A stretch of DNA of 64,000 nt from an uncultured Bacteroidota bacterium (GCA_963735755.1 CAVTME010000009.1:4189-68188), one strand, 5' to 3'. Positions 1 to 38,921 are shown, counted from the first letter of the stretch. The notes: generated by a model from the letters alone, not told the origin. Program-made: numbers and translations.

Positions 1-2274
1 GTAGTCTATCTCGAAGTTGTCCTCATTGGTCGATCCGGCCTCCCAGTTCACACGCATGGAGTTTTCTGTAACAAGGCTGAAGGTCATGTTGACTCGGAGC
101 TGCCGGTAACAGCAATTCAGTAGTCTCGTTGCCAGTGAGGTAATCAGAATAACCGGTCGCATTCTCTGCCCTCACCTGAAAATAGTAGGTGGTGTTCTCT
201 GTCAAGCTGCTCACATCAACATAGGTGTTCGTGGGAGTTCCCAGTGAGGTCCAGGGACCTGTATCCGATGGTCCGTAGTCTATCTCGAAGTTGTCCTCAT
301 TGGTCGATCCGGCCTCCCAGTTCACACGCATGGAGTTTTCCGTAACACTGGCTGAAGGTCATGTTGACCGGATCTGCCGGTAACAGCAATTCAGTAGCCT
401 GGTTGCCAGTGAGGTAATCAGAATAACCGGTTGCATTCTCTGCCCTCACCTGGAAATAGTAGGTGGTGTTCTCTGTCAAGCTGCTCACATCAACATAGGT
501 GTTCGTGGGAGTTCCCAGTGAGGTCCAGGGACCTGTATCTGATGGTCCGTAGTCTATCTCGAAGTTGTCCTCATTGGTGGAACCAGCCTCCCAGTTAACC
601 CGCATGGAGTTTTCTGTAACAAGGCTGAAGGTCATATTAACCGGTGTAGCAGGTTTAGGTAACACAGTGGCCTGGTTGCCAGTGAGGTAATCAGAATAAC
701 CGGTCGCATTCTCTGCCCTCACCTGGAAATAGTAGGTGGTATTCTCTGTCAAGCTGCTCACATCAACATAGGTGTTCGTGGGAGTTCCCAGTGAGGTCCA
801 GGGACCTGTATCCGATGGTCCGTAGTCTATCTCGAAGTTGTCCTCATTGGTCGATCCGGCCTCCCAGTTCACACGCATAGAGTTTGCCATAACACTACTG
901 AAGGTCATGTTGACCGGATCTGCCGGTAACAGCAATTCAGTAGCCTGGTTGCCAGTGAGGTAATCAGAATAACCGGTTGCATTCTCTGCCCTCACCTGGA
1001 AATAGTAGGTGGTGTTCTCTGTCAAGCTGCTCACATCAACATAGGTGTTCGTGGGAGTTCCCAGTGAGGTCCAGGGACCTGTATCTGATGGTCCGTAGTC
1101 TATCTCGAAGTTGTCCTCATTGGTCGATCCGGCCTCCCAGTTCACACGCATGGAGTTTTCTGTAACAAGGCTGAAGGTCATATTAACCGGTGTAGCAGGT
1201 TTAGGTAACACAGTGGCCTGGTTGCCAGTGAGGTAATCAGAATAACCGGTCGCATTCTCTGCCCTCACCTGGAAATAGTAGGTGGTGTTCTCTGTCAAGC
1301 TGCTCACATCAACATAGGTGTTCGTGGGAGTTCCCAGTGAGGTCCAGGGACCTGTATCCGATGGTCCGTAGTCTATCTCGAAGTTGTCCTCATTGGTCGA
1401 TCCGGCCTCCCAGTTCACACGCATGGAGTTTGCCATAACACTGCTGAAGGTCATATTAACCGGTGTAGCAGGTTTAGGTAACACAGTGGCCTGGTTGCCA
1501 GTAAGGTAGTCCGAAAAACCGGTCGCATTCTCTGCCCTCACCTGAAAATAGTAGGTGGTGTTCTCTGTCAAGCTGCTCACATCAACATAGGTGTTCGTGG
1601 GAGTTCCCAGTGGGGTCCAGGGACCTGTATCCGATGGTCCGTAGTCTATCTCGAAGTTGTCCTCATTGGTCGATCCGGCCTCCCAGTTCACACGCATGGA
1701 GTTTGCCATAACACTACTGAAGGTCATGTTGACCGGATCTGCCGGTAACAGCAATTCAGTAGCCTGGTTGCCAGTAAGGTAATCAGAATAACCGGTTGCA
1801 TTCTCTGCCCTCACCTGGAAATAGTAGGTGGTGTTCTCTGTCAAACTGCTCACATCAACATAGGTGTTCGTGGGAGTTCCCAGTGAGGTCCAGGGACCTG
1901 TATCCGATGGTCCGTAGTCTATCTCGAAGTTGTCCTCATTGGTCGATCCGGCCTCCCAGTTCACACGCATGGAGTTTTCTGTAACAAGGCTGAAGGTCAT
2001 ATTAACCGGTGTAGCAGGTTTAGGTAACACAGTGGCCTGGTTGCCAGTGAGGTAATCAGAATAACCGGTCGCATTCTCTGCCCTCACCTGAAAATAGTAG
2101 GTGGTGTTCTCTGTCAAGCTGCTCACATCAACATAGGTGTTCGTGGGAGTTCCCAGTGAGGTCCAGGGACCTGTATCCGATGGTCCGTAGTCTATCTCGA
2201 AGTTGTCCTCATTGGTCGATCCGGCCTCCCAGTTCACACGCATGGAGTTTGCCATAACACTGCTGAAGGTCATA
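1..2274. repeat. Coding tandem repeat, 273-bp unit, at least 9 copies
   Basis: GTAGTCTATCTCGAAGTTGTCC recurs at 1, 275, 549, 822, 1095, 1368, 1641, 1914 and 2187. Confidence 0.97.
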
Positions 2275-3320
2275 TTTATTGGGGCGAGTGGAGCAGCGGG
2301 TAAAGTTGTACTATTCTTCACCAAGGTATAAGCGGATGGACCCGTGGCGTTTACTGCACGGACACGATAATAGTATGTGGTACTGGCATCCAGTCCTGTA
2401 CTCGTATAGGTTCCAGTTGTTGAAGTTCCGTCAAAGACAAAATCTCCGCTGTTGGGTGAAAGCGAGCGTTCAATTTCAAATTCATCTTCATTGTCTGAGT
2501 TGTCATCCCAGTTCAGAATGACGGAGGTGCTGGTAATTGTTCCGAATGTGAGGTTGTCAGGTGCAGCAGGAATTCCATTTAAGTATGCATTTACCGCAGT
2601 ATGCCAGGTATTCCCCATGATGTCATATCCGGATTGCTTCAGGTGAATTCCATCCAATTCATAATCCCCAGGCCCAATTCCTGTTCCAGTTTCCATATTC
2701 ACCAATACAACACCCGGATCAGCTCGTGAGCCTACCATATCGGCTATAAGAACATTCAGGCCTGAAATTCTGGAATCAGCCGGATTCGTGTTAACAATCC
2801 TGGCCACAAATACCTGGACGTGGGTCCCGTTCGTCAGTTCCCACTCTTCAATTTCATTAAGGATCTGCTCAATGGTGGCTGCACTGACCGTTTCATTGTT
2901 TAACATGTCATTGGTTCCGATATGAAGCAGGATGATATCAGCAGGATATTCATCCAGATAGGGTGCATTGTCCACGGTGGTCTGGAGACCATTCATGATA
3001 TCCCAGCCATTATCCAGTAGTTGGAGAACATACTGATCACGGGTATTGGGAATCCCGCAATGTTGTGGGTTCAATGGCATGAGCGTATTGCCAGAACTCT
3101 GATGACCGATATACTCTATTGAATGTCCGCTTGCAGATAAGCTGCTCTTCAATTGTAGCCGGTAAGATACCCGCATATCAGTAGTTAAAGATCCCCATCC
3201 CTGGGTAAGAGAATTTCCAAGAGGCAGAACCTTGTAGCTTTGGCCTTCAACCATGGTGAAGGAAAAGCCAAGTATTGATATCAGGAGTGCAACAATGGTC
3301 CGGTGGAATATTGTGGTCAT
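1..3320 (-). CDS. Secreted SGNH/GDSL esterase (CE3-like) followed by a long FN3 tandem array; 3' end lies outside the window
   Basis: Signal peptide; SGNH blocks LPLGNSLTQG, LLHIGTND and DGIH; one divergent FN3 then at least 9 near-identical 91-aa FN3 units. ORF 297..3320 continues through two +1 indels (repeat spacing 274 instead of 273) into ORF 23..331 and beyond. Confidence 0.88.
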
Positions 3321-3643
3321 ATGAAGATTCTTTTGAAACAGAATAGCTTACTAATTATAAGACTGTAAAATAAACAAAGTCGAACTGTATTATGCATAAT
3401 ATATGCGAGTATTTGATCAAAATATACAATCGAATCACCAAAACTCTTATATTTCAGTAATCCAATTCAATTTCTGCATAGCTTCATCTAAATAACTGAT
3501 TTACTGGGAATTTAAATAAAAAAACGCATTGATTTGCTATACACTGGTCTACCTTCTGAAAAGGCATGAATTCCGTTTGTCATTGATATGACCCAATTCG
3601 TCCTTGAAGAGTTGTCTTTAAAGTAAAAAAAATGATTATAAAA

Positions 3644-4783
3644 TCATTGTTCCTTAAGAAGACCTACAACAATGTTTCTCAACCTGGGAGTATTTGAGCA
3701 AGCTGAATACTTCTTCATGAATACATTGTATGCTTTGTTTTGAAGATCAACATCCTCGTTTAGAATTTGGAGGAGTCCCTTTTTAAAATCCAATGCGTTG
3801 TTTGCAATAGAAATAGAATTCTCATGGTCTATCCCCTCCACTCCCTGGGAAGTTCCAACAATGCTGGTCTTTAGGGCCATGGCTTCTATACATTTCAGTC
3901 TCGTTCCGCTTCCATGTAGCAAAGGAATTACAGCAGCTTTTGACTCTGCTATATATCTCTTCATGTTCTCAACAGAGCCAAGAGCTTCAATGTTCGAGGT
4001 GAAGGGAAGGGATTCTTTTATCTGATCATACTGGTTTTGAGAACCATGGCCAACAATAATGAACTTTGTAAGTGAAGCCAGCTCCGCATCCCAAACAGAT
4101 TCAAGAAACCATTTTAATCCATACGCATTCTGAAATGCATTGAAATTACCGGACATAATTACCCGGTTTTGCTTAGTAGTTCCTTTGTCTATCTCGTATT
4201 CCTTCTCGTCAATATAATTTGGGATCATGTGGTTCTTGCTTGCTCTGAACCTACGGGAATAGAACTCCAGATCTTCGTTGGAAACCGCAATAATTGAATC
4301 AGCCATCCTCAGATAACGCAACTCATGGAAACGTTCTAGCGTAAAGCGTATATACTTGTATATCAATCCCTTAAGGTTTATTGCCGGAGCCTGGAAATTC
4401 AAATTTGACTGGATGTTGTGTGTCCCGTATATTACTTTTACATTTCGGGCTTTAAAAAGAGGTATGTAGTTTCCCAGAAAGTTGTAGTCGAGAAAAACCA
4501 GATCTATTTGCTGATTATCCGTAAACTCTTCTATTATTCCGGTCAAATCCCTCATCCTTTGAAATAGGCGAAGAAGGTTTTTCCACCGGTTCTTGGTTGT
4601 TATTTCAGGGCAATGACGGTATCTGACGTTCTTGTATTTTTCCTCCTCAGGAGGCGCATTTCCAGCGATAAGATACAATTGATCAGCAAAATCCAAAAGG
4701 CTGTTTATCAAATGATAGCTTCGGATTCTCTCCCCGGAATTTGGCGGAAAGGGGTCAATTTCTGTAATGAATAGGATGTTCAT
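3644..4783 (-). CDS. Glycosyltransferase family 4
   Basis: N-terminal PFPPNSGERIR; C-terminal PLLHGSGTRLKCIEAMA GT4 signature. Confidence 0.9.
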   Translation of the reverse strand: MNILFITEIDPFPPNSGERIRSYHLINSLLDFADQLYLIAGNAPPEEEKYKNVRYRHCPEITTKNRWKNLLRLFQRMRDLTGIIEEFTDNQQIDLVFLDYNFLGNYIPLFKARNVKVIYGTHNIQSNLNFQAPAINLKGLIYKYIRFTLERFHELRYLRMADSIIAVSNEDLEFYSRRFRASKNHMIPNYIDEKEYEIDKGTTKQNRVIMSGNFNAFQNAYGLKWFLESVWDAELASLTKFIIVGHGSQNQYDQIKESLPFTSNIEALGSVENMKRYIAESKAAVIPLLHGSGTRLKCIEAMALKTSIVGTSQGVEGIDHENSISIANNALDFKKGLLQILNEDVDLQNKAYNVFMKKYSACSNTPRLRNIVVGLLKEQ

Positions 4784-4810: not shown

Positions 4811-5716
4811 CTAAGGCTTCGAAAAAGAAATGCGCTTCCGGTGAAGCCTTACTGCTTTATCAAACACCCTGTATTTTAATAATTTTTTCGCCCTGATGTG
4901 TTTGTCCTCATTTACCAGTTTGGGTATTTCTACAGAATCATAGGTTTTCTCGAAATAATGAATATTGTGGATCCTGGAATGTTCAAGGCAAAGCTTGCTC
5001 AGAAAATTGTTATGTTTGCCTGATTCAATTTCCCGCAAGCGATAACGGTAAACATTGTTGATCATTCCATCAATTAAGTGATTGGTGGATTGGGATGCCG
5101 ATATCCTGTAGTATGACAAGTGCTGATTCACATATACCATTTTCATTCTTTTGGTATACCTGTACCAGAAATCATAGTCAGCAATGGGATGCAAATCACT
5201 GTTAAAGCCTCCAATTTCCAGAGCCACATCTTTCTTCACCAACACACCGGGAAACGGTATCGTGTCGAAATAAAAAAACGCAGGATGCATGATCCTAACA
5301 TCAGACGTTAAAACACCTGCCTTGTCAATCTCATCCCACTCCTGCTCACTTACAAAACTAGTATAGACAATGCCTCCAATTGAGTCGCCTATTCGTTCCA
5401 TGATCTTCTTAGAATATTCCACATACTGGCAATGCAGCATGTCATCATCATGTAAAACTGTCACCCAGGGAGTATCTGCATACCGGAAGCAATTGTTGAA
5501 GTTTTCATCCTGAGGAACAGTTTCCTTTGTTTTAACATATTTGATGTTAACCCCTTTATAGCTATCAACAATTGCTTTGAAATCGTCGTGGGGAGAATTG
5601 TTATCAATGAGCAATATACTACAATCAACTGTTTGATTGACAGCACTATCAAGTGCTTTTCTAATGAAATCAGTTCTGTTATATACTGGAAGCGCAATGG
5701 TAATCTGATCTTTCAT
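4811..5716 (-). CDS. Glycosyltransferase family 2
   Basis: ITIALPVYNR, IDNNS, LHDDD (DxD) and ADYDFW motifs. Confidence 0.92.
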   Translation of the reverse strand: MKDQITIALPVYNRTDFIRKALDSAVNQTVDCSILLIDNNSPHDDFKAIVDSYKGVNIKYVKTKETVPQDENFNNCFRYADTPWVTVLHDDDMLHCQYVEYSKKIMERIGDSIGGIVYTSFVSEQEWDEIDKAGVLTSDVRIMHPAFFYFDTIPFPGVLVKKDVALEIGGFNSDLHPIADYDFWYRYTKRMKMVYVNQHLSYYRISASQSTNHLIDGMINNVYRYRLREIESGKHNNFLSKLCLEHSRIHNIHYFEKTYDSVEIPKLVNEDKHIRAKKLLKYRVFDKAVRLHRKRISFSKP

Positions 5717-5826: not shown

Positions 5827-7260
5827 ATGCTTAAAAGGATTTACAACAGTCCGACGATGATGTCATGGGCATCTTATTTCGTTCGCTTTGGAAGTGCCAT
5901 CTTTGTATTGCCTCTGGTTCTGAAGCTTTTTACCCCGGTTGAACAATCCTTTTGGTTCTTTATCAATACAATCATAGGTTTCGCCATGCTGGCTGATTCA
6001 GGATTCGGGGCCACCCTGATCAGGGCTGTAAGCTATTTCAAATCTGGTGCCAATTATTTACCCAGGAATAAGAAAGAATACGATGATATCAAAAAAATCA
6101 CTGAGAGTCAGCCCAATCATGAGAAATTGAAAAACCTTCTTTCCACTGCGAACAGGATATACATCTACCTGGGAATCTTAACAGTGGTTTTAATCTCAAC
6201 AGGAGGTCTCGCAGCTGCCTGGAATATCCTTGAATTGTCTGGCCATCAGAAAGACATATGGGTGGCATTTATCATTGTCATTCCCTATTCTTACTTCATG
6301 ATGCTTTCAGTGAAGTGGAGTTCATTCATGAGAGGTTTGGGTTTTGTAGTAGAGGAAGCCAGGTTTGGTATTTTCCAGGGGGTATTAAGGGTCACCTCAT
6401 TTGTCATTCTCCTGCTATTTCATTTGGGACCTGCCTACCTGGTTGGTTTCATGCTGCTGGAGTCAATTATTAGATATATCTACATCAAGCGGTTTGTAAA
6501 GAGATGGTTCTTGAGGGAAAAAGTTGTTTTGCATACCAAGCACTATTTTGACCGGGAGATTTTTAACTCGCTTTGGTCTGCCACATGGAGGACCGGGCTC
6601 CTCTTCTGGGGCGCTTATGGAATTCAATCCGGCACATCCATCCTCGCTTCTCAAATAGATGATGCTCTTCTGATGGCCAATTTCTTACTGACCATGAGAA
6701 TTATGACTTTTGTGATCAACATTGCCAGGGCTCCGTTTTACACAAATATTCCAAAGATTTATGAACTTGCTGCAAAAAAGGATTTACCTACGCTTCGAAA
6801 AAAATCCTCGGAATACATGTTCCTCGGGCTCATGGTATTGGTAGTGAGCTCTGGCTTCATTATTCTGTTTGGCAATCCGTCACTGAGCTTGCTGGGTATA
6901 GAAACCCGTTTTGTCCCTCTGCTCATGCTGGTAACCATTGCGGTAACAGAAATATTGGATTTGCACGCCTCTTTTCATGCAACTTTATATACGTCCACTA
7001 ATCACGTACCCTTCGTTATACCAGCCACAGTTTCCGGGGCACTCATTATATTGGTTGGATTTGGAGTACTACCTACTTACGGATTGCTTGGAATTGTACT
7101 GGCGAAATTTGCAATACAGTTCTTATTTAACAACTGGTACGCCCCCTATCTTTCGCTGAAATTTATGGAGTGGCGAGTTCTGCGGTACCTTTACCAGTTT
7201 CCTTTATATGGGACCAGGTTTTTAAAAGAGGTAGTAAAAACAAATATTTTGCGCAGGTAA
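5827..7260 (+). CDS. wzx: Polysaccharide flippase (Wzx-like)
   Basis: 477 aa with many hydrophobic segments; LADSGFGATLIR motif of MOP-family flippases; EPS context. Confidence 0.78.
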   Translation: MLKRIYNSPTMMSWASYFVRFGSAIFVLPLVLKLFTPVEQSFWFFINTIIGFAMLADSGFGATLIRAVSYFKSGANYLPRNKKEYDDIKKITESQPNHEKLKNLLSTANRIYIYLGILTVVLISTGGLAAAWNILELSGHQKDIWVAFIIVIPYSYFMMLSVKWSSFMRGLGFVVEEARFGIFQGVLRVTSFVILLLFHLGPAYLVGFMLLESIIRYIYIKRFVKRWFLREKVVLHTKHYFDREIFNSLWSATWRTGLLFWGAYGIQSGTSILASQIDDALLMANFLLTMRIMTFVINIARAPFYTNIPKIYELAAKKDLPTLRKKSSEYMFLGLMVLVVSSGFIILFGNPSLSLLGIETRFVPLLMLVTIAVTEILDLHASFHATLYTSTNHVPFVIPATVSGALIILVGFGVLPTYGLLGIVLAKFAIQFLFNNWYAPYLSLKFMEWRVLRYLYQFPLYGTRFLKEVVKTNILRR

Positions 7261-7298: not shown

Positions 7299-8504
7299 AT
7301 GCTGAAAAAGGTTATTCTTATACTGGTTATCTTGACTACCCTGAAGTTCTATGAGCTGTCCTTTATCCCGGAAGTTGTTATCAAAGTTTCAGAATGGCTG
7401 AGCCTCGCCATTATGGCTGCTGTCATTGTACTTCATATCGCATACAGCAGAACAGGACTGATGAAAGCACATTTTACCACTCCAATTATCTTGATGACTG
7501 GCTCAGTGGTGATCAGCATGTTTGCAGCCTATGCATTTCAAAATCAACCGTTTCAGGTTACTGCTTATGCCCAACAGGCCATCTACTTTTACATGATTTA
7601 CCTTCTCCTTCATCTGCTTAGACCCACTGGGGACTTCCTGATTAAATGCATCCTTGGCTTTGGCTTGGTTTATGTGGGATTGTACCTGCTACAGTATTTC
7701 GTTTATCCCACACAAATTACAAACGCTAAAATGTTCCTGGATCGAGGTACTCTCAGGATTTTTTTAACAGGTGGCGGTTTCCTCGTTATTGCCTATTATG
7801 CATGGTTATACCTGGTATTCAGGAAGTTTCGAATGAGGTATGTGATATTTATATTGCTTAGTATGGCTATATTTGTTCTTCTTGGCACCCGCCAATTACT
7901 AGCCACGGTGGTACTCCTGACCATCTTATTTGTGCTGCAAAGCAAGATTATTAAATCAAAGATCCTGCTTTTTTTGATGTTTGGCCTGGCAGTCATCCCG
8001 GTATTTTTCATTTTTCAGGATATACTCTATGCCATGTTCGAGCTGACTTTGGAACAAAACCAGGCCTTCGAAAGCAACATCAGATTGGAAGCTGCAAGAT
8101 ACTTCCTGACCGATTTCTTCCCGAACGGATTGGCCTATCTTACCGGAAATGGAGCCAGTGGAACTTCAGCATATGGCATGCGTGTTCTTAAAATTGCAAA
8201 AGAATATGGTTACCATCAATCTGACCTTGGACTGCTGGGTGAGTATACCAGATACGGAGTATTATTTGTTGTAGGAGTATTTATAATTCTCTACAGGGTC
8301 ATCTCCATGAAAATTCCGGAGAAACTGTCGTTTATCAAGTATAATTTCATTGGGATCGCTTTAACAATTGTTACCGGAGCTGGAGCCTTTGGAAGTTCGG
8401 GTACAAATATCATTATTAATTCAATGATGCTTTACATGATAGACCTGCATCTGAATGATCCGAATGCTTTTAAAATGTACCCTGCATATGCATCGCCTGA
8501 GTAA
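7299..8504 (+). CDS. wzy: Polysaccharide polymerase (Wzy/O-antigen-ligase-like)
   Basis: 401-aa polytopic membrane protein with GTRQ, a periplasmic loop containing IRLEA, and SDLGLLG; follows wzx. Confidence 0.7.
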   Translation: MLKKVILILVILTTLKFYELSFIPEVVIKVSEWLSLAIMAAVIVLHIAYSRTGLMKAHFTTPIILMTGSVVISMFAAYAFQNQPFQVTAYAQQAIYFYMIYLLLHLLRPTGDFLIKCILGFGLVYVGLYLLQYFVYPTQITNAKMFLDRGTLRIFLTGGGFLVIAYYAWLYLVFRKFRMRYVIFILLSMAIFVLLGTRQLLATVVLLTILFVLQSKIIKSKILLFLMFGLAVIPVFFIFQDILYAMFELTLEQNQAFESNIRLEAARYFLTDFFPNGLAYLTGNGASGTSAYGMRVLKIAKEYGYHQSDLGLLGEYTRYGVLFVVGVFIILYRVISMKIPEKLSFIKYNFIGIALTIVTGAGAFGSSGTNIIINSMMLYMIDLHLNDPNAFKMYPAYASPE

Positions 8505-21922: not shown

Positions 21923-21944
21923 GGAATTTATTGATTCTAAAATG

Positions 21945-23563: not shown

Positions 23564-23589
23564 ATTTTTATATTTTATGAGTATTATAG

Positions 23590-24380
23590 TTAATCTTTCC
23601 ATACTTTCCAGGGAGCTTTTCCCTCCTTCCACAGTCCTTCCAGCAGGTTTTTGTCCCTGAGGGTATCCATGGGCTGCCAGAAACAGTATGCTTAAAAGCA
23701 CTCAACTGTCCATCATTGCCAGGTTTTCCGAGGGGCTCTTTCTCAAATACGGTATAATCTCCTTCAATATAATCAAATACTTCGGGTTCAAGCACGAAAA
23801 ATCCACCATTGATCCAAGCTGTATCATCTCCGTCCCCTTGAGGTTTTTCCTTAAAATATGAATTCTTGATTCTCCCTGTCTTCAGGTTAAATACCCCGAA
23901 TCGACCATGCTGCCTCACCGAAGTAAGGGTGGCCAGTACATTCCCTGGTTCTTATGGTGCATGATCAGTTCATTGATATTCACATCACTCACCCCATCCC
24001 CATAGGTCAGACAGAAGGTTTCATTCTCCACATATTCCTTGATCCTTTTAATCCGTCCCCCGGTCATGGTTATTTCCCCGGTATCCACCAGGGTAACTTT
24101 CCATGGTTCAGAATGCATGGTATGTACCTGCATCTGATTGTTTTTCATATCAAAGGTCACATCCGAATTGTACAGAAAATAATTGGAAAAATACTCCTTG
24201 ATCATATATCCCTTGTACCCGCAACAAATGATAAAATCGTTCAGATCCGTAGTGGGAATAAATTTTCATGATATGCCAGAGAATGGGTCTGCCCCCGATT
24301 TCTACCATGGGTTTGGGTCTGACTCCGCTCTCTTCACTTATCCTGGTTCCAAATCCACCAGCAAGTAATACAACTTTCAT
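23590..24380 (-). CDS. rfbF: Glucose-1-phosphate cytidylyltransferase, frameshifted
   Basis: [34 protein letters not shown] and WINGGFF motifs. Confidence 0.93.
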
Positions 24381-24396
24381 AATATTATATTTTTAG

Positions 24397-26921: not shown

Positions 26922-26959
26922 GTGAACGGACCGTTAAAAGTAACTAATAATCTTTTTCA

Positions 26960-29288: not shown

Positions 29289-31718
29289 TTATTGAATTAC
29301 AATTTTTCCCTTCTGACTCTGGTCACCATTAACGACCTTGAACATATAGAATCCATTGGAAAGATCTGAAACATCCATCCGGATCATCATTTCTCCTTCA
29401 TTCACCTCAGTCATCTTCACCACTTTGCCAGAGAGATCTGCAATCTCAATAACACTTGCGGAATTCTTCAGTTCAAAAACCAGATAATCATTCGCTGGAT
29501 TTGGGTAAACCTTAGAAACCAGACTCTGCTCCTGATCAATCCCTGTGGTATATGCCACCTGAACTGAGAACTGATCAATCACAGTATGCGGTCCGTCTGA
29601 AACAGTAATCAGTACAGTATGCGGTCCCAGTTCAGCCTCCGTTGGAGTTCCTGACAATACCCTTGAAGTCGGATCAAATGTCATCCATACAGGAATAAAT
29701 GTACCGGTCAGTGTGAGCGGATCATTATCATAGTCAACCGCATCAAGGAAGTAAGTATAGAGTTGGCCAACCAGAGCTGTTGGGTTGGCTACCGAGTTGA
29801 TTACCGGGGCAGTATTTACATCCCTTACGTTCAGGATATATTCATCCTTCACAACATCATAGCCATCAGTTACAACAAGGATCACATTGTGGTTGCCTAC
29901 ATGCGACTTCTCGGGAGTACCGCTTAGAATCTGTGTTGCAGGATCAAAGCTCAACCATGCGGGGATAGATTCCGCACTGAATGTTAAAACGTCAGCGGGA
30001 TCTGAATCAAATGCAGTGATGTTATACATATAATCACTGTAGTTATCCACTGTTGTTGGTGCAATGGATGTTATCACCGGCACACTGTTTCCACTCTTCA
30101 CCTTGATGATGAAGCTTTGTTCCTTGGTAAACTCTCCATCGGTCACTGTAAGTTTCACTGGGTTGTCACCAGCATCTGACCGGGTAGGGATTCCAGCCAA
30201 TACTTTTGTTGCTGGATTGAATATCAGCCAGGAAGGAATTATTTCTGCATCAAAAATAAGGTCATCTTCATCGGGATCCGTTGCATCAACGAAATACGTA
30301 TATGCCAACCCCTCTTCGGCAGTTGTATCCGGTACAGAATTAAAGACTGGTTCATCATTCACATCGTCAACCGTAAGTGTGAAACTATCGTAAATGTCAG
30401 TAGTTCCATCCGTAGCAAGAAGACTAATGTCATGATCTCCCACCTGAGTCTGATCGGGAGTTCCAGACAGCAAGCCGGTTTTTGGATCAAAATCCAACCA
30501 GCTCGGAATATCTACAGCTGACAGATATACTGAATCGCCATCAATATCATCAGCAGTGAATAAGTAATCATAGTACTCATCCTGCAGTACAGACTTATCT
30601 GGTGTTGAAGTAATCAGCGGGAAGTAGTTGCCAGGCCTGCAATGTGCCTGCCCTGCCAGTCCGTCGTTAAAAATAGAACTGATCTCAGAATCGGACAGAG
30701 CCTTGTCATACACAAGAATTTCATCCATGGCTCCATTGAACGGATACCTGTTGCCTTCGTACTTATCCCAGTAGCCGATATTCAGCGGGAATTCTCCGTC
30801 TGCAGTAAAATCATATGGTCCGAAACCATGGGTAAAGGAGTTCTTCACATTGTTGATATATACGCGCATGACAGTGGTTTCCCATGCATTGGGAGGACCG
30901 TCATAGACAGCAACAACATGATACCACTGATTGGTGGCAATGGTCACGTTCATAGGAGTTACACTCTTTACAGTTTCTGTTGACCTGGGTCTCAGGCTGA
31001 AAGTGATTTTAGGAGCCGAGGGATTCACATCAACATTAATCATCACCATCATAAACATCTCGTCAAAATCAGATGTGGGTGAACCCCGTGCAATCAGTAC
31101 CTGGTTGTTATTTACCGTTGCATGTTGCCCGGCGTAGTTGACCCACATGGAAACAGAAAATCCTCCTGACCTGGCAAAATCATACTGTCCCTCATCCTGT
31201 ACATAAACTGCCTGATCAATAGTACCAAGAGGAGTAAATTGCTTGGCCCTGCTTACCTGCCCGGCTACATCAGTAAGGGAGGCCAGTGCTGTGGCTGTAT
31301 ATCCACCCTTAAAATCAACGTAAGTGTTACCTGTTGTTTCATCCAACTTCCAGTAAGAAACCAGATCATCCGCACAAACAACTGCATCGGTCAGATATAT
31401 AAGGAAGGATCTGACGGATTCACCTACTGTGTTATACGCCTTGACAGTTACCACTCCTCCCTCATTGGGTTCGGATGGGGTCCACTGTATAAGACCTGTA
31501 GTTTGATTAATGGTCATTCCAGGCCTTGCAACAAGGAGTTCATAGGATTCGACTGGATTGGCATTCACTGCATTCAGATCCAGTATGAACTCTTCATCGA
31601 TGGTAGCTGTCATATCATCAATCGGGGGTAGATATGGTGCTTCAGCAGCAGAAACCCTATTACTGATAAGTAACAACATTACCAGAATAGGCAAGCTAAA
31701 AAGGGTTAACTTTTTCAT
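29289..31718 (-). CDS. T9SS-secreted LamG-like protein with 5 putative Ig (cadherin-like) domains
   Basis: Signal peptide; LVSYWKLDE...MDEILVYDKALS LamG; four tandem PxITS...IPxWLxFDP...LSGTP repeats plus one N-terminal copy; VYPNPA CTD. Confidence 0.88.
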   Translation of the reverse strand: MKKLTLFSLPILVMLLLISNRVSAAEAPYLPPIDDMTATIDEEFILDLNAVNANPVESYELLVARPGMTINQTTGLIQWTPSEPNEGGVVTVKAYNTVGESVRSFLIYLTDAVVCADDLVSYWKLDETTGNTYVDFKGGYTATALASLTDVAGQVSRAKQFTPLGTIDQAVYVQDEGQYDFARSGGFSVSMWVNYAGQHATVNNNQVLIARGSPTSDFDEMFMMVMINVDVNPSAPKITFSLRPRSTETVKSVTPMNVTIATNQWYHVVAVYDGPPNAWETTVMRVYINNVKNSFTHGFGPYDFTADGEFPLNIGYWDKYEGNRYPFNGAMDEILVYDKALSDSEISSIFNDGLAGQAHCRPGNYFPLITSTPDKSVLQDEYYDYLFTADDIDGDSVYLSAVDIPSWLDFDPKTGLLSGTPDQTQVGDHDISLLATDGTTDIYDSFTLTVDDVNDEPVFNSVPDTTAEEGLAYTYFVDATDPDEDDLIFDAEIIPSWLIFNPATKVLAGIPTRSDAGDNPVKLTVTDGEFTKEQSFIIKVKSGNSVPVITSIAPTTVDNYSDYMYNITAFDSDPADVLTFSAESIPAWLSFDPATQILSGTPEKSHVGNHNVILVVTDGYDVVKDEYILNVRDVNTAPVINSVANPTALVGQLYTYFLDAVDYDNDPLTLTGTFIPVWMTFDPTSRVLSGTPTEAELGPHTVLITVSDGPHTVIDQFSVQVAYTTGIDQEQSLVSKVYPNPANDYLVFELKNSASVIEIADLSGKVVKMTEVNEGEMMIRMDVSDLSNGFYMFKVVNGDQSQKGKIVIQ

Positions 31719-31857: not shown

Positions 31858-31865
31858 CAAAACTA
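31858..31865 (-). promoter_or_regulatory. Putative -7 element (TAGTTTTG) for the LamG/Ig gene
   Basis: CAAAACTA on the + strand in a 416-bp AT-rich intergenic region. Confidence 0.4.
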
Positions 31866-32134: not shown

Positions 32135-33046
32135 TCAATCATGCAGAGGGTTCCTCTTTTTACCGAAAAGCGCTAAAATTTTCCATTTAAAAAAACCCCC
32201 TACAAGCCTGAGGGAATGATTCATTGGATGTCTGTAAGCCAAAATCGAGGTTGCATGCCTTTTGTAAAACAAAAAATTCTTCTTTAGTTGGGAACCAGAC
32301 CTGATGTCGGTGAGAGTCAAATACAATCCCTTCAATGTTCCACCATGAGTGATTCCCGAACTGGATTTATCATTCCAGAGTTTCAATTGTGGATAAGCTA
32401 TAATGTTGTACCCCGAAGACTTAGCCCTGAATGTAAAATCGCTGTCCCCATGATACTGTGGAAATAGTTCGGCATCCCACAAGCCAATCTCCTGGATCGC
32501 AATTGCAGGAACCAGGGTTCCCATGCCAGGCAGCCAGTCCACTTCAATGGATTTAGCATACTCCGGGGAATCTTGCAGACCTGACCCAACCATGTATTTC
32601 ATGCCACTTTTTGGATTGAACACACCCCCAAAAGACCAGATCACCTGCTCTTTGTTGAGCTGGAAAATTTTTGATCCGGCAATTGTTCTTTCAGGCAAAT
32701 TCAAAATCACTTTGTCCAGTTCAACGAAGTAATCTTTTGCCGGTTGAATATCGTTGTTCCAGAGAAGTAAAAAATCAGCCTGAAGTTCCGAGATAGCATA
32801 TTTTGCTGCCTCATTGATGCCTCCGCTCCACCACAAACTCCCGTCTCCTTTCACAACATGTATTGCTGGGATAGTATTGGCAAGCCATTCTCCAGTGCCG
32901 TCTGTGGATCCATCGTCAGTCACCACAATCTGATACCTGTTTCCGTTTCGTCCGGGTCCCATGACCAGGTCTTCGAGGGTTTTGAGACATTTTTTAGTAT
33001 AATCCAGATTATTAAAGACAGCGATTAAAATGGCAATTACTTTCAT
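32135..33046 (-). CDS. Glycosyltransferase family 2 (rhamnosyltransferase-like)
   Basis: Start at MKVIAILIAVFNN; TDDGSTDG, GSLWWSGGIN, WNND and YHGDSDF motifs. Confidence 0.9.
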   Translation of the reverse strand: MKVIAILIAVFNNLDYTKKCLKTLEDLVMGPGRNGNRYQIVVTDDGSTDGTGEWLANTIPAIHVVKGDGSLWWSGGINEAAKYAISELQADFLLLWNNDIQPAKDYFVELDKVILNLPERTIAGSKIFQLNKEQVIWSFGGVFNPKSGMKYMVGSGLQDSPEYAKSIEVDWLPGMGTLVPAIAIQEIGLWDAELFPQYHGDSDFTFRAKSSGYNIIAYPQLKLWNDKSSSGITHGGTLKGLYLTLTDIRSGSQLKKNFLFYKRHATSILAYRHPMNHSLRLVGGFFKWKILALFGKKRNPLHD

Positions 33047-33064
33047 TATATTAAAGTCAAAAAA

Positions 33065-34090
33065 ATGAAAGCAAATATAATCAAGTTGCGCCATTTTCTT
33101 TTCAGGTTTGCGGCAATCTTCGTCATCATCTGTACCAGTGCTGTTATTTTCTTCATGATCTATAAAAAAAGTATTGTTGAGTATCTGAGTCTAAGCAAAC
33201 CTGAAAACGCTACCCTTTTGATTGTGGAAGGGTGGGTGGATGATAGGATTCTGGATTTTGCCGTTAAAGAGTACAATGGCAGGGCGTATACCTCCGTTCT
33301 GGTAACAGGAATGCCCATCGACAGCAGTTTTACGCTGTATACTGAGGGAATCATTGAGTACAGCATCAAAGAACAGGAGTTGGTCCTTCATCCAGGTGAA
33401 CCATTAAGATTATCCATGAAAGGCACATCTGCAGGGGGCATTAAACCGCTCTCTTCCGTACACCTCAATGGACAAATTGTGAAGCAGCTGACTGTAGAAT
33501 CAGATTGGAATAAATTCGAGATTTTTGTTGATTCAGCAGTTCATGTTCACACCATTGGTGTATCATTTGACAACGATGGATATACCCAAACAGAAGACCG
33601 GAATCTTCATATAAAATCAATCCAGGTAAATGAGCAGGTGTTTCCCGCACGTTCCGAAAATGCATTCGTTCTTCAAAAAAAGGGGCATACCTACCAGAAT
33701 CCCCAGTCCACAAATTATCATTCCATGGCTGCCATTGGCGCAAACAAGCTGGTAAACCTGGGGATTTCGAAAGAAGAAGTGATTGCCCTTCCATCACCCT
33801 TATCAAACAGAAATAAAACTTACCTGAGTGCCTATACCATCAATGAGTGGCTTTCATCCAGTCAACATTCCGGCCAAGATATTAATATTATTTCAGAGGG
33901 GATTCATTCAAGGAGGTCCTATATCCTTTATCAGCGTGCTCTGAAAAAGCAGAACATAAACATAGGAATATTGCCTGCAAATGTGGAGGGAGAGCAGTAC
34001 CGGGGAAACACCCTAACAGATAAGGATATCATTCGGGAACTAATTGGTTCCTTTTACTACAGGTTCCTTTTCAGACCTGGTCTTAACTAA
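33065..34090 (+). CDS. YdcF/ElyC (DUF218)-like membrane-anchored protein with an inserted beta-sandwich
   Basis: TM helix; LIVEGW, VTGMP, NKTYLSA and ISEGIHSRRS motifs; ~125-aa insert containing FDNDG...DRNLHIKSI. Confidence 0.68.
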   Translation: MKANIIKLRHFLFRFAAIFVIICTSAVIFFMIYKKSIVEYLSLSKPENATLLIVEGWVDDRILDFAVKEYNGRAYTSVLVTGMPIDSSFTLYTEGIIEYSIKEQELVLHPGEPLRLSMKGTSAGGIKPLSSVHLNGQIVKQLTVESDWNKFEIFVDSAVHVHTIGVSFDNDGYTQTEDRNLHIKSIQVNEQVFPARSENAFVLQKKGHTYQNPQSTNYHSMAAIGANKLVNLGISKEEVIALPSPLSNRNKTYLSAYTINEWLSSSQHSGQDINIISEGIHSRRSYILYQRALKKQNINIGILPANVEGEQYRGNTLTDKDIIRELIGSFYYRFLFRPGLN

Positions 34091-36531
34091 GACCCCATAT
34101 TCCTTGATGATTTTGGCTTAGATTTTCTTGAACGGCTTCGAAACAGTCTTTTCTCTTCCTTATGAACTGTGTAGTACTTACCATGAGCCCCTGCTGACTT
34201 TGCATCCTCACCATTCACCAGAATATGTAGGTCCTTGATGCTTTTTGCCGCGATATCATCCAGGCTCGATTGAAGTAATTTGGTTTTAACATACCCAAGC
34301 CTGGTTACATAGATATTGATATCTGCATATTTCATGAGCACAAATGAGTCGGTCAGCACACCATAAGGAGGTGTATCAATAATGATGTAGTCATATTTGC
34401 TTCGCAATGTCTTCAAACAATTTTGTTGTTTGTTGCTGGAGATCAGTTCGATGGGATTGGGTGGTATCTGTCCGGCCAGGATGATATCAAGATTATCTAC
34501 ATCAGTAGAGATGGTAATTTCTTCCAGGGAGGCCTTGTTGATCAGGTAGGAACTGACCCCCACCAGTCCCCTGATGCCAAGTTATGAATACAGTTCACTG
34601 GGCCGTCGTAAATCAAATTCAAGCAAGAGCCGTTTTGTTATTGGTCACGGCCAGGCTGCTGGCCATATTCAATGCTGAAAAGGATTTTCCTTCGCCCTCC
34701 ATGGTCGAAGTAACCAGGATCACCTGGTTCTGTTTACCCATCAAATAATATATCATGTTACTTCTTAAGGATATGAAATGCTTCGGCAACAATGGAGTTT
34801 GGTTGATCATTAATCACATTGATGGTGGCTCCGGTTACCCTGGGGGATGCTCCCGATCTGGTTCAGTTCGGTGTATTTTCTAAGCTCCTCTTTATTCAGA
34901 ATTTTGTTAGTGAAAATTTTCCTTACTAAGAACAAAAAGTGAAGGGATAAGCATTCCAATGAACAGTGCACCGATCAAAAAAACATCTTCTTCGGTGAAT
35001 GAACTGAATTGAATGAGGGGGGTTCAACCAACTTCACAATCTGGCAGAGTTGATGCCTTGATGATCTGAGCCTGAATACGTTGTTCCAGCAGGGACATAT
35101 AGACATTTTCACTCAAGTTGAATTTTCTCTCAATTCCCAGCAATCTGCGTTGGGTAAAAGGCAGTCTGGAATATTCGCTTTCAAGTCCCCGGATTTTACT
35201 GTTGATTTCTCTTAATTCTGCGTTGGTGGTGTTGATGCTGTATTGAAGATTTTCCATGATCACATCCTCAAATTATTGATGCTAATATCAAGGGTCCTGA
35301 GCCTGGGATTTCTGAGCTGGTTGTTGTTAATAATTTGTTGCCGTTCAGCATTCAGAGTTGTTAGCTCCTCAATCAGACTGCTTAGAAGTGGATCATCAAG
35401 ACCCATGGCAGAAGGAGCCAGGAAACCAGATGAATCCGTGCTTGAACTGAAAATAGTCCTCCATCTGCATCAGGTAATTGCCCCTCCGCTTCAATTTCTT
35501 CTCTTCTGGGTTTCAGAGGTCTGCAACTGATTATAAAATTTCCTGCTTTTTCATCAATATTCATCACACTGGAATTGCGCCTGATATTCTGTAGTTCCTG
35601 TTCTGAGCTGCCCAGTGATTTGGAAATATCAGCCAGCTGAAAATCAAGATGCTCAATGGTCTTTTTGGCCAGATAATTCTTCTCCTCCAGGTTGTTTTCA
35701 ATATACGTACTGATCAGTCCATCAAGAAAATCAATCCCTTTATGTATATTGTCACTGATTAAGGTCATCTCCACCATGGTGGCATCGATGGCTGAGGCTT
35801 CAACTTTCAGTGAATTCTTGAATATCACTGGTAAGCATTGATCGTAGAATTGAATTTGAAAAACAGGTCTTTCCCTGGATAGGTCAGCTGAATTGTAGTT
35901 TGAATTCAGCAGCAAGCGTGAAGGAGGTAAACTCATTGCTGATCTCCTCTCCAAACCTGAAAGTGCCCTCCAATCTGAAAACACCAGAAACCATAGAAAA
36001 TTTATCATCTTCTAGTTTTCTTACTAATCACATCCTTGCTGAATGCCTCAGATAACATAACTCTCTTCATCCATGATCCTGATATAAAAAAAATGATCCA
36101 AAGGTTGAAGATGTCCTTATTCGGAATAACGATAAAAGGAGATCCTTATAAAGGTCTTTCAAGCTGAAATCCATCTCCTTGGGAATTTTATCTTCCTGCA
36201 GATAATAGGATACCAGAAGATCCATATTTCAACCACTGATCTGATCAGAGGTGACGATTTAAAAAATAGATCTCATTCTGCAGATTCTTATCCTGTTCGA
36301 TCAACTCATAGACCCTCATGATATCATCCGATTGTCTCCGAAAGCATTGGATCTTTCAATATTCAGAACAACAGAGGCCGTACTTTATATGTTTTTGCTG
36401 CAAATTTGATATAGAAAATTGCTCCTCCAAAGTGAAATTGCCAGCGAGATGGACTACAACATACCAATACTTAAGAGATCCCTTAAAAACTCAGTAATGT
36501 ATGTCAGAATTGTATCGTTCGATTGATTCAT
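34087..36531 (-). CDS. wzc: Polysaccharide co-polymerase/tyrosine autokinase, heavily frameshifted
   Basis: VTSTMEGEGKS Walker A, PPNPIEL, IIIDTPP, coiled-coil periplasmic region. Confidence 0.88.
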
Positions 36532-36544
36532 GTTATCTGAGTAT

Positions 36545-37318
36545 CTAGTTTAAATATGTTACCATAAATGTCAAAACTACAATGGTCAGGGAAGCCATTG
36601 AGAAAGTAGATCATAAGGGAATGTATCCATTCCCCATTTCTTGCTCTTCAATGGTTCCACATATATAATATCATTGGATTTAACCATATAGAATTCTGAA
36701 GCCAGAAATTCATCACTGGTGAGATCAACCATATGTTTGACCTGTAATCTCCTTCCTCCCTGACAATGAGCAATCTTTCTCCTGTTTCCAAATGTGGCAA
36801 TATCATTGGCATACCCAATGGCCTGAAGAATATTAATGCTTTTATAATTGAAGACATAAACACCGGGCCTGTTCACCTCCCCCAGAATGGTCACTTTGTT
36901 ATTTACAAAGCGGATAAATACCGAGGGATATAGCAGATACTGAGACAAGCTCCTTCTTCAATCATGTCGGAAGCCTCTAGCAAGGTCAACCCGGAAAGCT
37001 TTACTCTGTTGATATAGGGAAGTTTGATATACCCCTCCTCATCACCGTATAACTGATCACGGAAGGATCACGCATCAAGTTCCTGGCTGCTCTGGTTAAA
37101 ATTGGTCTGGTGTTTCATCTGCACTGGTAACCTTAATATAGAGTTCATCACCCTGTCTGATGATATTGTCCAGCAGGTTCATCAATGAAATACATATTAT
37201 CATTGCTGCTGCATCAATCATGCTCTTCTGTCCTGGACATATGACGATTTTCCTGATTGGGAACACAAGAGGCAATTAGTGCAATTCCATCAGAATAACT
37301 AAATACAATTTTTCTCAT
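36545..37318 (-). CDS. wza: Outer-membrane polysaccharide export lipoprotein, frameshifted
   Basis: LIASC lipobox, VTILGEVNRPG SLBB motif, NDIIYVEP; immediately upstream of wzc. Confidence 0.85.
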
Positions 37319-37441
37319 AATCATCATTCAATAACTCAGCTATTAACCAATCATAAATATAGAAACATATGGAATATCCAGATAAAAGTTGAACAATAAG
37401 CAAGGAGAAACCTACTGAATGCATAAATCTGACTGTTGGAC

Positions 37442-38886
37442 TTAATGTCCACCAGCCAGAAAAAGGTTTTTACCGTTTTGAAGAACAGCCCCAGATCCTT
37501 ACAAAGGTTCCAGTTATCGATATAATGAAGATCAAGTTCCATCCACTCTTCGAAAGAAACATCGTGACGGTCAGGAACAATCTGCCAGGTACAGGTAATT
37601 CCTGGTCTTCACAGAAAGCCTTCTTAGCTGCCAGCGTTCATATTGTTTCACCTCATCCTCCAGGGGAGGCCTGGGACCCACAAGTGACATTTCTCCTCTG
37701 ACCACATTAAATAGCTGGGGCAATTCATCAAGACCGGTTTTCGAAGGAACTCCCACCTTGGTAATTCTGGGATCATCCTTGATCTTAAAAACAGGGCCAT
37801 CTGCTTCATTCCTGGCTTTCAGTTTCTTCAGCTGTTCTTCAGCATCCACGACCATGGTCCGGAACTTAAACAGCTTGAATTTCCTGCCCCTTAACCCGAT
37901 CCTCTCCTGCCTGAAAAAAACGGGTCCTTTGGAACCCAACTTTAATAATCAAGGCAATAGCAACAGAAATACTGGAGAGTAAAAGAATAATGGCAAGGAT
38001 GGAGAAATAGATATCTCCCATGGATTTAAGTATGAGTGACAGGCTGTTAGAAGGAACATCAACAATGGAAAGATCTTTTGACTTATTCAGGGTCTTCAAC
38101 TGGAATTCTGTGGGATCCAGTGGAGAAACAGAGGACTGAAGCCTGAAGATCACCCCCACCTCATTGCATATATCTCCACCACTTCTTTAATCAGTTCAAT
38201 ATCCACATCCCTTTTGCAATAAATCACTTCATCGATCACCTGAGTTATCAATCACGTTTTTCAAATCCTCGTTGCTTGGAATGATCTTGATATGAGACCC
38301 GTATTTGGCCTTGATCAATTTGGAATCGGTCATAATGGAGCGATTTTAAATCCCCACTCCTTCTGCTTCAGAAGGTTTTCAATCACTCCATCGGAAAATG
38401 CATCTGCAATGATCAGTACATGATGGGTGCTTTTACCAAAGAACCGATATGTCTTCAGTGCCTTAAAAGCAAGAAGTCGGAAGATCAGTGTCAGCAATGA
38501 ACAGGTCCGGTAATAAATATACCATCAGCACACAGGCAAAGAGGTAAGTCTGAAAATTACTTTTACGGCCAGCAGTCCAATGAAAAATAATAAAAGTATC
38601 CGTGCAAACTGAAAAGCCAGGGTCAGGTATCGCTGGGTCCTGGGAATTTTTGCCATGGCAGTAATCCTGGAAAGAACAAACCAGGACATCAGAATGAATG
38701 CGAAGAAGAAGATGCCTTCCATGGTCTTTACTTCCATCTCGGGAATGAAGTAACGTTCTGGTGATCCAGATGGACATAGGGAAAACTACACTGGCAAGGA
38801 TCAGCTCAACAAGATCAATAAAACCTTTGGCCCTGCCCTTGTTATTCAATCTGATAATCTCTAATCTTGCTATAAATGTGTGTCAT
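37442..38886 (-). CDS. Priming undecaprenyl-phosphate sugar phosphotransferase, frameshifted
   Basis: FRQERIG, KFRTM, DDPRIT and [21 protein letters not shown] motifs. Confidence 0.92.
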
Positions 38887-38897
38887 TGATTTACATA

Positions 38898-38921
38898 TTT
38901 GTCAGATTTCTGACAAAACTA
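38898..38921 (-). promoter_or_regulatory. EPS operon -7 element overlapped by a 9-bp inverted repeat
   Basis: CAAAACTA at 38914-38921 (TAGTTTTG on the minus strand); TTTGTCAGA-tt-TCTGACAAA at 38898-38917. Confidence 0.55.

Follow-up and report, generated by a model that had tools for sequence, protein, structure and literature searches.

The window analysed here, a stretch of 64,000 nucleotides from an uncultured Bacteroidota bacterium of the order Bacteroidales (GCA_963735755.1, CAVTME010000009.1:4189-68188), begins with a polysaccharide locus: positions 1-38.9 kb form one Wzx/Wzy/Wza/Wzc locus, ending near 38.9 kb, in which four genes for secreted-type cargo proteins are embedded, two with SGNH heads, one with a head of polysaccharide lyase family 14 (PL14) and one with a LamG head. 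By its gene content, the locus is of the Wzx/Wzy-dependent capsule or exopolysaccharide (EPS) type with Wza/Wzc export. We propose, with a probability of about 0.6, that its cargo would be exported by the type IX secretion machinery (T9SS) and would act on, or bind, the finished polymer of the same cell outside the outer membrane. The initial annotation of this DNA had described a self-contained system for editing the cell's own matrix. That description is partly supported overall, by the linkage of cargo and acylation genes, by SGNH heads that resemble family-3 carbohydrate esterases (CE3) and retain their catalytic residues, and by the lectin-like LamG head. The four cargo genes are as follows (Ig, immunoglobulin-like; CTD, C-terminal domain).

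1..3320, minus strand: giant, putatively secreted SGNH-FN3 protein, N-terminal part (Pfam GDSL 40.5 bits, eight FN3)
12108..15437, plus strand: putatively secreted protein with a PL14-like lyase head, three FN3, Laminin_G_3 and a divergent T9SS tail (Pfam, PDB profile)
26960..29134, minus strand: SGNH-Ig-CTD protein with a CE3-like SGNH head, a He_PIG Ig stalk and a type-A T9SS tail (Pfam, Por_Secre_tail)
29289..31718, minus strand: putatively secreted protein with a LamG lectin-like head, 4-5 He_PIG Ig domains and a type-A T9SS tail (Pfam, Por_Secre_tail)

Heads, stalks and sorting tails of the cargo

The domain make-up first noted for the four proteins agrees with Pfam in each case: an SGNH head and FN3 array that run off the window edge, a PL14-like head followed by three FN3 and Laminin_G_3, SGNH with Ig domains (SGNH, He_PIG and Por_Secre_tail), and LamG with Ig domains (Laminin_G_3, four He_PIG and Por_Secre_tail). 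To place the SGNH heads, a profile was built from eight of them and searched against PDB. The best match was 2vpt (E 2.2e-22 over ~190 residues, with all four blocks in common), which we take to be a CE3 enzyme and which the PDB search labels as "lipolytic enzyme"; acetyl esterases 5b5s and 5b5l were also matched at about 1e-6, and none of the 10 PDB matches was a chain of the AlgX, AlgJ or PatB type. Blocks I, II, III and V are present with their Ser, Gly, Asn and Asp-x-x-His, the catalytic Ser, block II Gly, block III Asn and the His each being found in 86/86 SGNH heads and the Asp in 83/86. Thus, at the sequence level, the heads resemble CE3-like esterases with their catalytic residues retained. 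Solved CE3-type enzymes deacetylate plant xylan for nutrition, whereas the head described here is carried on a stalk with a T9SS tail and lies inside a biosynthesis locus.

The window open reading frame (ORF) of the giant protein (297-3320, minus strand) consists of the GDSL/SGNH head and eight FN3 stretches; its FN3 array is a tandem repeat of a 273-bp unit, 8.3 copies of which fall inside the window (1-2276, 92% matches). To the left of the window, the protein runs on for at least 1429 residues, with FN3, HYR and PKD domains, until the contig stops; it exceeds 2,400 residues in total, with frame breaks at about 171 and 300-360. Its orthologue in a related genome, G010, is 2480 residues long and ends in a Por_Secre_tail. 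The stalks of such proteins vary, being FN3 here, Flg_new_2 repeats in the G010 orthologue and Big_7/He_PIG/PA14 in Pontibacter. Because stalk types differ among proteins with the same head, the stalk is interchangeable and the head is the part that is kept.

The PL14 head scores 66.3 bits with PF21294 (cut-off 27). A profile of six PL14 sequences matched the alginate lyases 5gmt (5.6e-19) and 6kcw (4.1e-16) and VAL-1, 3a0n (2.9e-11), and the invariant GGKLPG motif of the PL14 heads aligns with the same motif in 5gmt. By sequence, the head matches solved alginate/glucuronan lyases. The solved members come from a mollusc, bacteria and a Chlorella virus; what sets the present head apart from them is its fusion to FN3, LamG and a T9SS tail.

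For the LamG head, an AlphaFold2 (AF2) model computed from a 35-sequence alignment reached a pLDDT of 91.7. Sequence and fold searches with this head matched only non-catalytic jelly-roll modules: the S-layer domain 4qvs (2.9e-15), arabinanase domain 4, sialidase lectin domains, pentraxin and neurexin. The lectin-like sub-domain of clostridial toxin binding regions, a group heavily over-represented in PDB, was matched as well, at 13-17% identity and a TM score of ~0.6. What is shared is the fold only, and the modelled head fits a binding role.

T9SS CTDs had been reported for three of the four proteins. Two of them (26960-29134 and 29289-31718) are above threshold with Por_Secre_tail/TIGR04183; the tail of the PL14 protein is not (23.4 bits vs 27, with only model positions 2-34 of 75 aligned) and, by eye, looks interrupted by an acidic insert, its orthologues carrying full T9SS tails. 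The putative signal peptides of the four cargo proteins were read by eye from the translations. Among T9SS parts, the source genome encodes SprA, GldM/PorM, PorV (414.6 bits) and a PorU-like sortase, the last in pieces that jointly cover model positions 1-1094, each piece scoring under the cut-off. Since SprA, GldM, a PorU-like sortase and PorV are encoded, export of the cargo by T9SS is plausible, and its anchoring at the cell surface is possible.

Acylation genes and conserved gene order

On the low-coordinate side of the SGNH-Ig-CTD gene lie genes for acylation and for sugar-nucleotide metabolism. Frame-broken genes of the locus, whose damage is described in the last section, were handled as intact in comparisons.

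25485..26945, minus strand: MBOAT 2, frame-broken (alignment and Pfam)
24395..25440, minus strand: AlgX/AlgJ-like SGNH-fold putative periplasmic O-acetyltransferase partner of MBOAT 2, heavily frame-broken (frameshift-aware alignment)
23593..24392, minus strand: sugar-1-phosphate nucleotidyltransferase, frame-broken (PF00483)
22520..23641, minus strand: NAD-dependent sugar epimerase/dehydratase, frame-broken (frameshift-aware alignment and G010 Pfam)
21999..22496, minus strand: dTDP-4-dehydrorhamnose 3,5-epimerase-like enzyme (tblastn, 77% to the G010 gene)
20751..21931, minus strand: methyltransferase with a C-methyltransferase C-terminal domain, frame-broken (frameshift-aware alignment and Pfam)
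19631..20664, minus strand: acyltransferase-3 (AT3) family protein, two ORFs (PF01757, 1.9e-14)
18065..19508, minus strand: MBOAT 1, AlgI-type membrane O-acyltransferase, four frame pieces (Pfam)
17063..18052, minus strand: membrane-anchored 329-residue protein adjoining MBOAT 1, family unassigned

Orthologues of the AlgX/J-like protein match PF16822 (ALGX) with 30.9 bits in G010 and 77.9 bits in Pontibacter (cut-off 26.5), from which it follows that MBOAT 2 probably has its own periplasmic transferase partner; the MBOAT match in G010 is at 1.1e-28. An MBOAT gene next to an AlgX/AlgJ-type gene, the arrangement expected of AlgI/AlgJ-type O-acetylation, was found in both G010 and Pontibacter, and the window copies of the two genes are frame-broken. 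We read the nucleotidyltransferase as a probable cytidylyltransferase. The G010 counterpart of the 3,5-epimerase-like gene matches PF00908 at 2e-63.

A second acylation block (17063-20664: MBOAT 1, the 329-residue membrane protein and AT3) is strain-specific in appearance. The 329-residue protein has no Pfam or NCBIfam match and no similarity to the AlgX/J-like protein; its look-alikes in a protein atlas are only unnamed Bacteroidota clusters, one of them with DUF1574 on 12% of its members. Being present in only 2/49 genus genomes, it was treated as a strain-specific accessory. A role as the acyl-transfer partner of MBOAT 1 is possible.

We then asked whether cargo and synthesis genes are found together more often than a cargo-rich genome would produce by itself. 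TIGR04183 has 131 matches in the 4.73-Mb source genome, i.e. 1.08 expected per 38.9 kb, and the chance of CTD matches per locus length is P(>=3) = 0.095 and P(>=4) = 0.024. Co-location in the source genome alone is thus weak evidence and, given P(>=3) = 0.095, the case rests on conserved gene order in other genomes. The SGNH head of 26960-29134 was found in 15/41 genomes searched, source genome included, and in 12/24 genomes of the genus when the source genome is left out. A tblastn comparison with the window covered eight contig stretches from seven SGNH-head genomes. Five of the eight preserve the order LamG-Ig-CTD, SGNH-Ig-CTD, MBOAT, AlgX/J-like and CDP-sugar genes, one of them coming from another family of the order, and a sixth reaches its contig end immediately after the SGNH gene. 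In G010, the genes from the initiating sugar transferase through the giant SGNH protein are co-directional over ~40 kb with all frames intact, and the gaps from LamG to SGNH and from SGNH to MBOAT are 117 and 78 bases; in the window, the SGNH-MBOAT gap is ~15-40 bases.

A wider scan used the eight-head alignment against one genome per species and found 390 relatives, of which 75 loci were kept and scored by tblastn with window and G010 proteins; this sample overlaps the genus/order sample and is not independent of it. The counts were:

MBOAT within 6 kb of the SGNH head: 35/75 loci
LamG head match anywhere in the fetched locus: 37/75 loci
AlgX/J-like match anywhere in the fetched locus: 32/75 loci
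Strict same-strand order LamG, SGNH, MBOAT, AlgX/J-like: 27/75 loci
Loci flanked on either side by 3.5 kb or more: 52/75
Strict same-strand order among these well-flanked loci: 25/52
MBOAT within 6 kb among these well-flanked loci: 28/52

Comparing gene neighbourhoods across relatives was the check that the initial annotation had itself suggested, and the linkage of LamG/SGNH cargo with MBOAT does recur, in strict order at 27/75 loci and at 25/52 of the well-flanked ones. MBOAT-linked loci come from Bacteroidales, unclassified Bacteroidota and Cytophagales records. The cassette is present in another order in the cultured Pontibacter vulgaris NBU2972 (L075, 9563-19735), where Pfam identifies Big_7-SGNH-CTD, Big_7-SGNH-He_PIG-PA14-CTD, ALGX, MBOAT and LamG-He_PIG-CTD proteins. 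It lies there between a block of initiating transferase, GT26 (glycosyltransferase family 26) and CDP-sugar genes and a GT4 gene, with ALGX and MBOAT on the opposite strand. As a cultured and named organism, this strain could serve as an experimental model.

The linkage was also mapped on a quick maximum-likelihood tree of the 86 SGNH heads. The MBOAT-linked label requires 15 changes on this tree, against a mean of 29.1 when labels are shuffled, and none of 500 shuffles was as low as 15. The label is thus clustered on the head tree; the linkage is probably old but has been repeatedly lost.

The PL14 head was sampled independently of SGNH. It is rare across the order (3/201 genomes in an even draw) and common in the genus (19/49). 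Matches to Wzx, Wzy or glycosyltransferases lie within 10 kb of PL14 in 11/15 fresh loci, with none in the other four using the same queries, and an SGNH head lies within 10 kb in 7/15, directly after the PL14 gene in five. Loci of this type also house the PL14 and giant SGNH proteins, either within them or at their margin. A hand count, to be taken as a lead rather than a test, places a GT26 gene within ~6 kb of the PL14 gene in 13/22 PL14-bearing stretches, window included.

Own polymer or another substrate

If the locus works as its gene content suggests, repeat units would be assembled on a lipid carrier, Wzx would flip them, Wzy would polymerise them and the chain would leave via Wza/Wzc. 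The product would carry a CDP-derived 6-deoxy-sugar residue. The MBOAT and AlgX/J-like pair would O-acylate it in the periplasm, with further O-acylation in the source strain by the second MBOAT and the AT3 enzyme. These assembly, export and acylation steps follow from established knowledge of the families. Outside the outer membrane, the two CE3-like SGNH esterases would strip acyl groups, the PL14-type lyase head would cut the exported chain, and the lectin-like LamG head would bind or hold it. Each cargo protein is built with the head N-terminal, the Ig/FN3 stalk central and the sorting tail C-terminal, so that the head would project outward if the tail is tethered. Extracellular editing and the outward display of heads are what we infer from gene order, fold and conserved residues. 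Likewise proposed from sequence are the substrate, the attachment to the cell surface and the role in the cell's physiology (remodelling, release or dispersal).

Because the cassette and the CDP-sugar genes travel together as far as Cytophagales, esterase and lectin would probably recognise the decoration made by the CDP-sugar block and not the backbone. A more specific version can be formulated. The LamG-CTD, SGNH-CTD, MBOAT and AlgX/J-like genes, together with the CDP-sugar genes, might form a portable module that would "write, read, erase" a single acylated deoxy-sugar decoration of Bacteroidota capsules, in which the periplasmic MBOAT pair would be the writer, the T9SS-tethered esterase outside the eraser, and the lectin tethered outside the reader. 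We put this forward tentatively, as an idea more apt to fail than to hold.

A number of observations weigh against the proposal that the cargo edits the cell's own polymer, in addition to the modest co-location statistics of the source genome given above. Among the 52 evaluable loci, 24 have no MBOAT within 6 kb. All eight heads from outside Bacteroidota (Acidobacteriota, Ignavibacteriota, Chloroflexota and a deltaproteobacterial record) are unlinked. A clade of shorter SGNH-Flg_new_2-CTD/SGNH-FN3-CTD paralogues lies outside EPS loci (L046, L050, L069, L056 and L029), that of L050 beside GH3 and GH130 (glycoside hydrolase families 3 and 130) and arabinofuranosidase genes and that of L046 beside an AXE1 esterase gene. 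At least 10 of the 15 changes of the MBOAT-linked label are forced by starred branches of the tree, and counts of loci from related species are non-independent and inflated by kinship. The AF2 model of the PL14 head is poor (pLDDT 55.7 with 6 sequences). A lyase requires uronic acid in its substrate, and no uronate-forming gene was found in the locus, NDP-sugar dehydrogenases being encoded elsewhere in the genome. Finally, type-A CTD proteins in other Bacteroidota are in many cases set free and not anchored. The initial annotation would have been abandoned had orthologues of the cargo usually been unlinked to EPS genes. This condition turned out in its favour: orthologues of the SGNH-Ig and LamG-Ig proteins are usually encoded directly upstream of the MBOAT and AlgX/J-like genes, in loci with an initiating transferase, Wza and Wzc.

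The reading that survives best beside own-polymer editing, though we consider it unlikely, is that the cargo acts on foreign material (capsules of other cells, acetylated plant or algal glycans, surfaces) and sits in a capsule locus through co-regulation or joint exchange. The closest solved relatives of the heads are indeed degradative (a carbohydrate esterase and alginate/glucuronan lyases), and paralogues with the same head are found beside GH3, GH130 or AXE1 or among unrelated genes. A tight, ordered, same-strand cassette with MBOAT and AlgX/J-like genes in two orders is nevertheless hard to explain without a shared substrate. Moreover, SusC/SusD, transporters and glycoside hydrolases are absent among the ORFs annotated in 1-39 kb, so the locus does not qualify as a polysaccharide utilisation locus.

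Wza/Wzc export, the mark of a capsule/EPS pathway and not of the O-antigen ligase route, speaks against a different proposal, namely that the locus makes a glycan to which T9SS cargo is joined or by which it is glycosylated, as with the A-type lipopolysaccharide (A-LPS) of Porphyromonas, the co-located cargo being its main clients and forming a protein coat without any editing. T9SS cargo is known to be joined to polysaccharide by way of a linking sugar (PMC7468200), and the type-A tails together with the encoded PorU-like sortase and PorV would suit such a scheme. In the locus, however, Pfam revealed neither a ligase nor a gene of the Wbp/Vim type, and the fully conserved catalytic residues argue for working enzymes. 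We regard the protein coat as very unlikely.

The SGNH-Ig-CTD protein could also be a transferase, not an esterase: the terminal O-acyltransferase of a relay like AlgI/AlgJ/AlgF/AlgX, with LamG as its polymer-holding partner. Its gene lies immediately upstream of MBOAT (gap ~15-40 bases), the four adjacent genes parallel AlgI, AlgJ, AlgF and AlgX of alginate, and AlgX likewise joins an SGNH fold to a carbohydrate-binding module (PMC4148444). Yet a protein with a T9SS tail would leave the periplasm and be parted from the MBOAT donor, the locus already encodes an AlgX/J-like protein of its own, and the sequence is nearest to CE3 esterases with no AlgX/PatB-type match. We accordingly give the transferase little credence. 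Least credible is chance or hitch-hiking, in which some cargo genes of a cargo-rich lineage (131 CTD matches, giving 1.08 expected in a stretch as long as the locus) ended up in a surface-polysaccharide region prone to recombination, the G+C of the locus being ~0.40 against ~0.50 in the rest of the window. The census disfavours it, gene order and strand being shared by 27 loci that come from many species and two orders.

Own-polymer editing, the reading we prefer, follows a logic already known from other loci. The initial annotation knew of no Bacteroidota capsule locus of this architecture, and we also found no described case of T9SS cargo in a capsule locus in the open-access literature on Bacteroidota; the arrangement is nonetheless less unprecedented than was thought, since EPS loci with a secreted lyase and polymer-binding proteins of their own are known from Vibrio vps/rbm and alginate. 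In Vibrio cholerae, a synthesis cluster (vps-1/rbm/vps-2) carries genes for secreted matrix proteins and a lyase, RbmB, which trims Vibrio polysaccharide (VPS) from the cell surface and aids dispersal (PMC11637428, PMC11695861). The present locus differs in phylum and in bearing its enzymes on long Ig/FN3 stalks with a sorting tail, and RbmB is not a PL14 protein. Secretion would be by T9SS here and is by type II there; RbmA is built of FN3-type domains and RbmC/Bap1 of lectin-type domains, and these proteins bind the polymer. We know of no esterase in the Vibrio island. In the Pseudomonas alginate operon (AlgI/AlgJ/AlgF/AlgX and AlgL), MBOAT and SGNH-fold partners O-acetylate the polymer during export, and a lyase is co-encoded in the same operon (PMC4148444, PMC10641220). 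That system is synthase-dependent with periplasmic modifying enzymes, whereas the locus here is Wzx/Wzy-dependent, with an additional SGNH protein and lyase bearing T9SS tails. The PatA/PatB/Ape1 peptidoglycan cluster places an MBOAT gene next to genes for an SGNH transferase and for a distinct SGNH esterase that carries a binding module. The likeness lies in having both the writer and the eraser of one acyl mark; there, the substrate is peptidoglycan and all parts are periplasmic. The features distinguishing the present locus from all three are the phylum, the predicted use of T9SS, the stalked enzymes, and the combination of a putative esterase outside the cell with an acyltransferase in the periplasm.

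Should the proposal hold, T9SS would deliver a dedicated capsule-editing tool-kit in addition to adhesins, motility proteins and feeding enzymes, and environmental Bacteroidota would carry a conserved acylation/de-acylation pair across the outer membrane. The putative module, together with the stalked PL14 lyase, could tune the stickiness, length and visibility to phages or neighbours of the cell's own coat after export. The proposal also offers a testable handle on aggregation and matrix release in uncultured Bacteroidales of sediment, soil and digesters. For annotators, SGNH, PL14 or LamG cargo near Wzx/Wzy genes should not automatically be taken for nutrient-harvesting carbohydrate-active enzymes.

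Remaining locus genes, sequence quality and flanks

The other genes of the locus are listed below (GT2, GT4 and GT26, glycosyltransferase families; SAM, S-adenosylmethionine).

3644..4783, minus strand: GT4 glycosyltransferase (Pfam)
4811..5716, minus strand: GT2 glycosyltransferase (Pfam; G010 orthologue 71% identical)
5827..7260, plus strand: Wzx-type repeat-unit flippase (NF041503, E 3.1e-65, 220.9 bits, curated cut-off 300)
7299..8504, plus strand: candidate Wzy polymerase (weak Wzy_C match, E 0.0082)
8516..9613, 9634..10659 and 10704..11852, plus strand: three GT4-type glycosyltransferases (Pfam)
15553..16299, plus strand: SAM-dependent methyltransferase (Pfam)
16307..17051, minus strand: GT26 (WecG/TagA/CpsF family) glycosyltransferase, frame-broken (Pfam)
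32135..33094, minus strand: GT2 glycosyltransferase (Pfam)
33065..34090, plus strand: membrane protein with CBM60-like and DUF218 domains (Pfam)
34079..36558, minus strand: Wzc-type chain-length/tyrosine-kinase co-polymerase, frame-broken (alignment and Pfam)
36560..37607, minus strand: Wza-type outer-membrane polysaccharide exporter, frame-broken (alignment and Pfam)
37445..38920, minus strand: initiating polyprenyl-phosphate sugar transferase (Bac_transf), frame-broken, the locus's first gene

The cargo had been placed among Wzx/Wzy synthesis genes. For Wzx this is supported by the E-value, although the match lies below the curated cut-off; the Wzy assignment is only weakly supported by its Wzy_C match, and the candidate gene adjoins Wzx in relatives too (tblastn). 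Bac_transf is matched at 1.4e-34 by the window fragment and at 3.2e-66 by the intact G010 orthologue. The Wza (Poly_export and SLBB) and Wzc (Wzz, GNVR and P-loop kinase) domains were found in the G010 orthologues, to which the window copies are 66-72% identical after frame correction. The CBM60-like/DUF218 membrane protein is wedged between the Wzc and GT2 genes and has no tblastn match in the 15 PL14 loci L103-L117 of relatives; CBM60-like modules bind carbohydrate in a calcium-dependent manner. A terminator/promoter scan of 24000-39500 gave 13 terminator-like sites against 11.6 in shuffles and none in the LamG/SGNH/MBOAT gaps; its promoter model is unsuited to Bacteroidota, and operon structure is not firmly inferable from it.

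Two stretches, ~16.3-26.9 kb and 34-45.5 kb, are made of short overlapping frames. This damage, which the initial annotation had missed, fragments the two MBOAT genes, the CDP-sugar genes, wza, wzc and the gene for the initiating transferase. Frameshift-tolerant alignment of eight intact G010 orthologues to ~10.9 kb of the window revealed 99 events, made up of one-base insertions (48) and deletions (45) and of 6 stops in frame. The indel density is ~1 per 117 bases in the damaged stretches, the neighbouring stretches being clean, and only 24/99 events have a homopolymer run of at least 4 within a 20-base context. Amino-acid identity after frame correction is 66-84%, against 56-75% for intact neighbours. 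Similar damage affects rubrerythrin and a Gfo/Idh-type oxidoreductase inside the second stretch and, elsewhere in the genome, SprA, GldM, PorU, PorV and an NDP-sugar dehydrogenase; genome-wide, 23/954 five-kb bins lack any frame of at least 250 codons. The patches are, very probably, unpolished assembly error and not gene decay, and such error may lie behind the 78.9% completeness of the source assembly (23 contigs). Real pseudogenisation was rejected on the grounds of this indel density, the near-equal numbers of insertions and deletions, the amino-acid identity kept and the like damage to unrelated housekeeping genes. An alternative genetic code was rejected too, since frame shifts interrupt the genes and no single stop codon recurs.

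Past 38.9 kb, on the right-hand side, lie unrelated genes: SiaC-like, oxidoreductases, rubrerythrin, a sigma-54 two-component pair, MacB/FtsX permeases, sulfatases and GH2. Two SiaC-family (PF09345) matches, 39186-39485 and 40585-40920, lie directly beside the locus's first gene and may represent one or two frame-broken genes; Pseudomonas SiaC is part of a partner switch that controls aggregation via cyclic di-GMP. A degradative cluster at 57686-63999, partly frame-broken, comprises GH2-type glycosidases, a sulfatase in two parts (57686-58570 and 58561-58998) and a fragment of a second sulfatase, and is unrelated to the polysaccharide locus. At the other end of the locus, the giant SGNH gene adjoins genes for an RsmD-like methyltransferase and a DUF3822 protein in two genomes (L016:3144-4501 of G010 and L092:16931-18297), and the same housekeeping pair in both suggests a conserved chromosomal site for this locus type.

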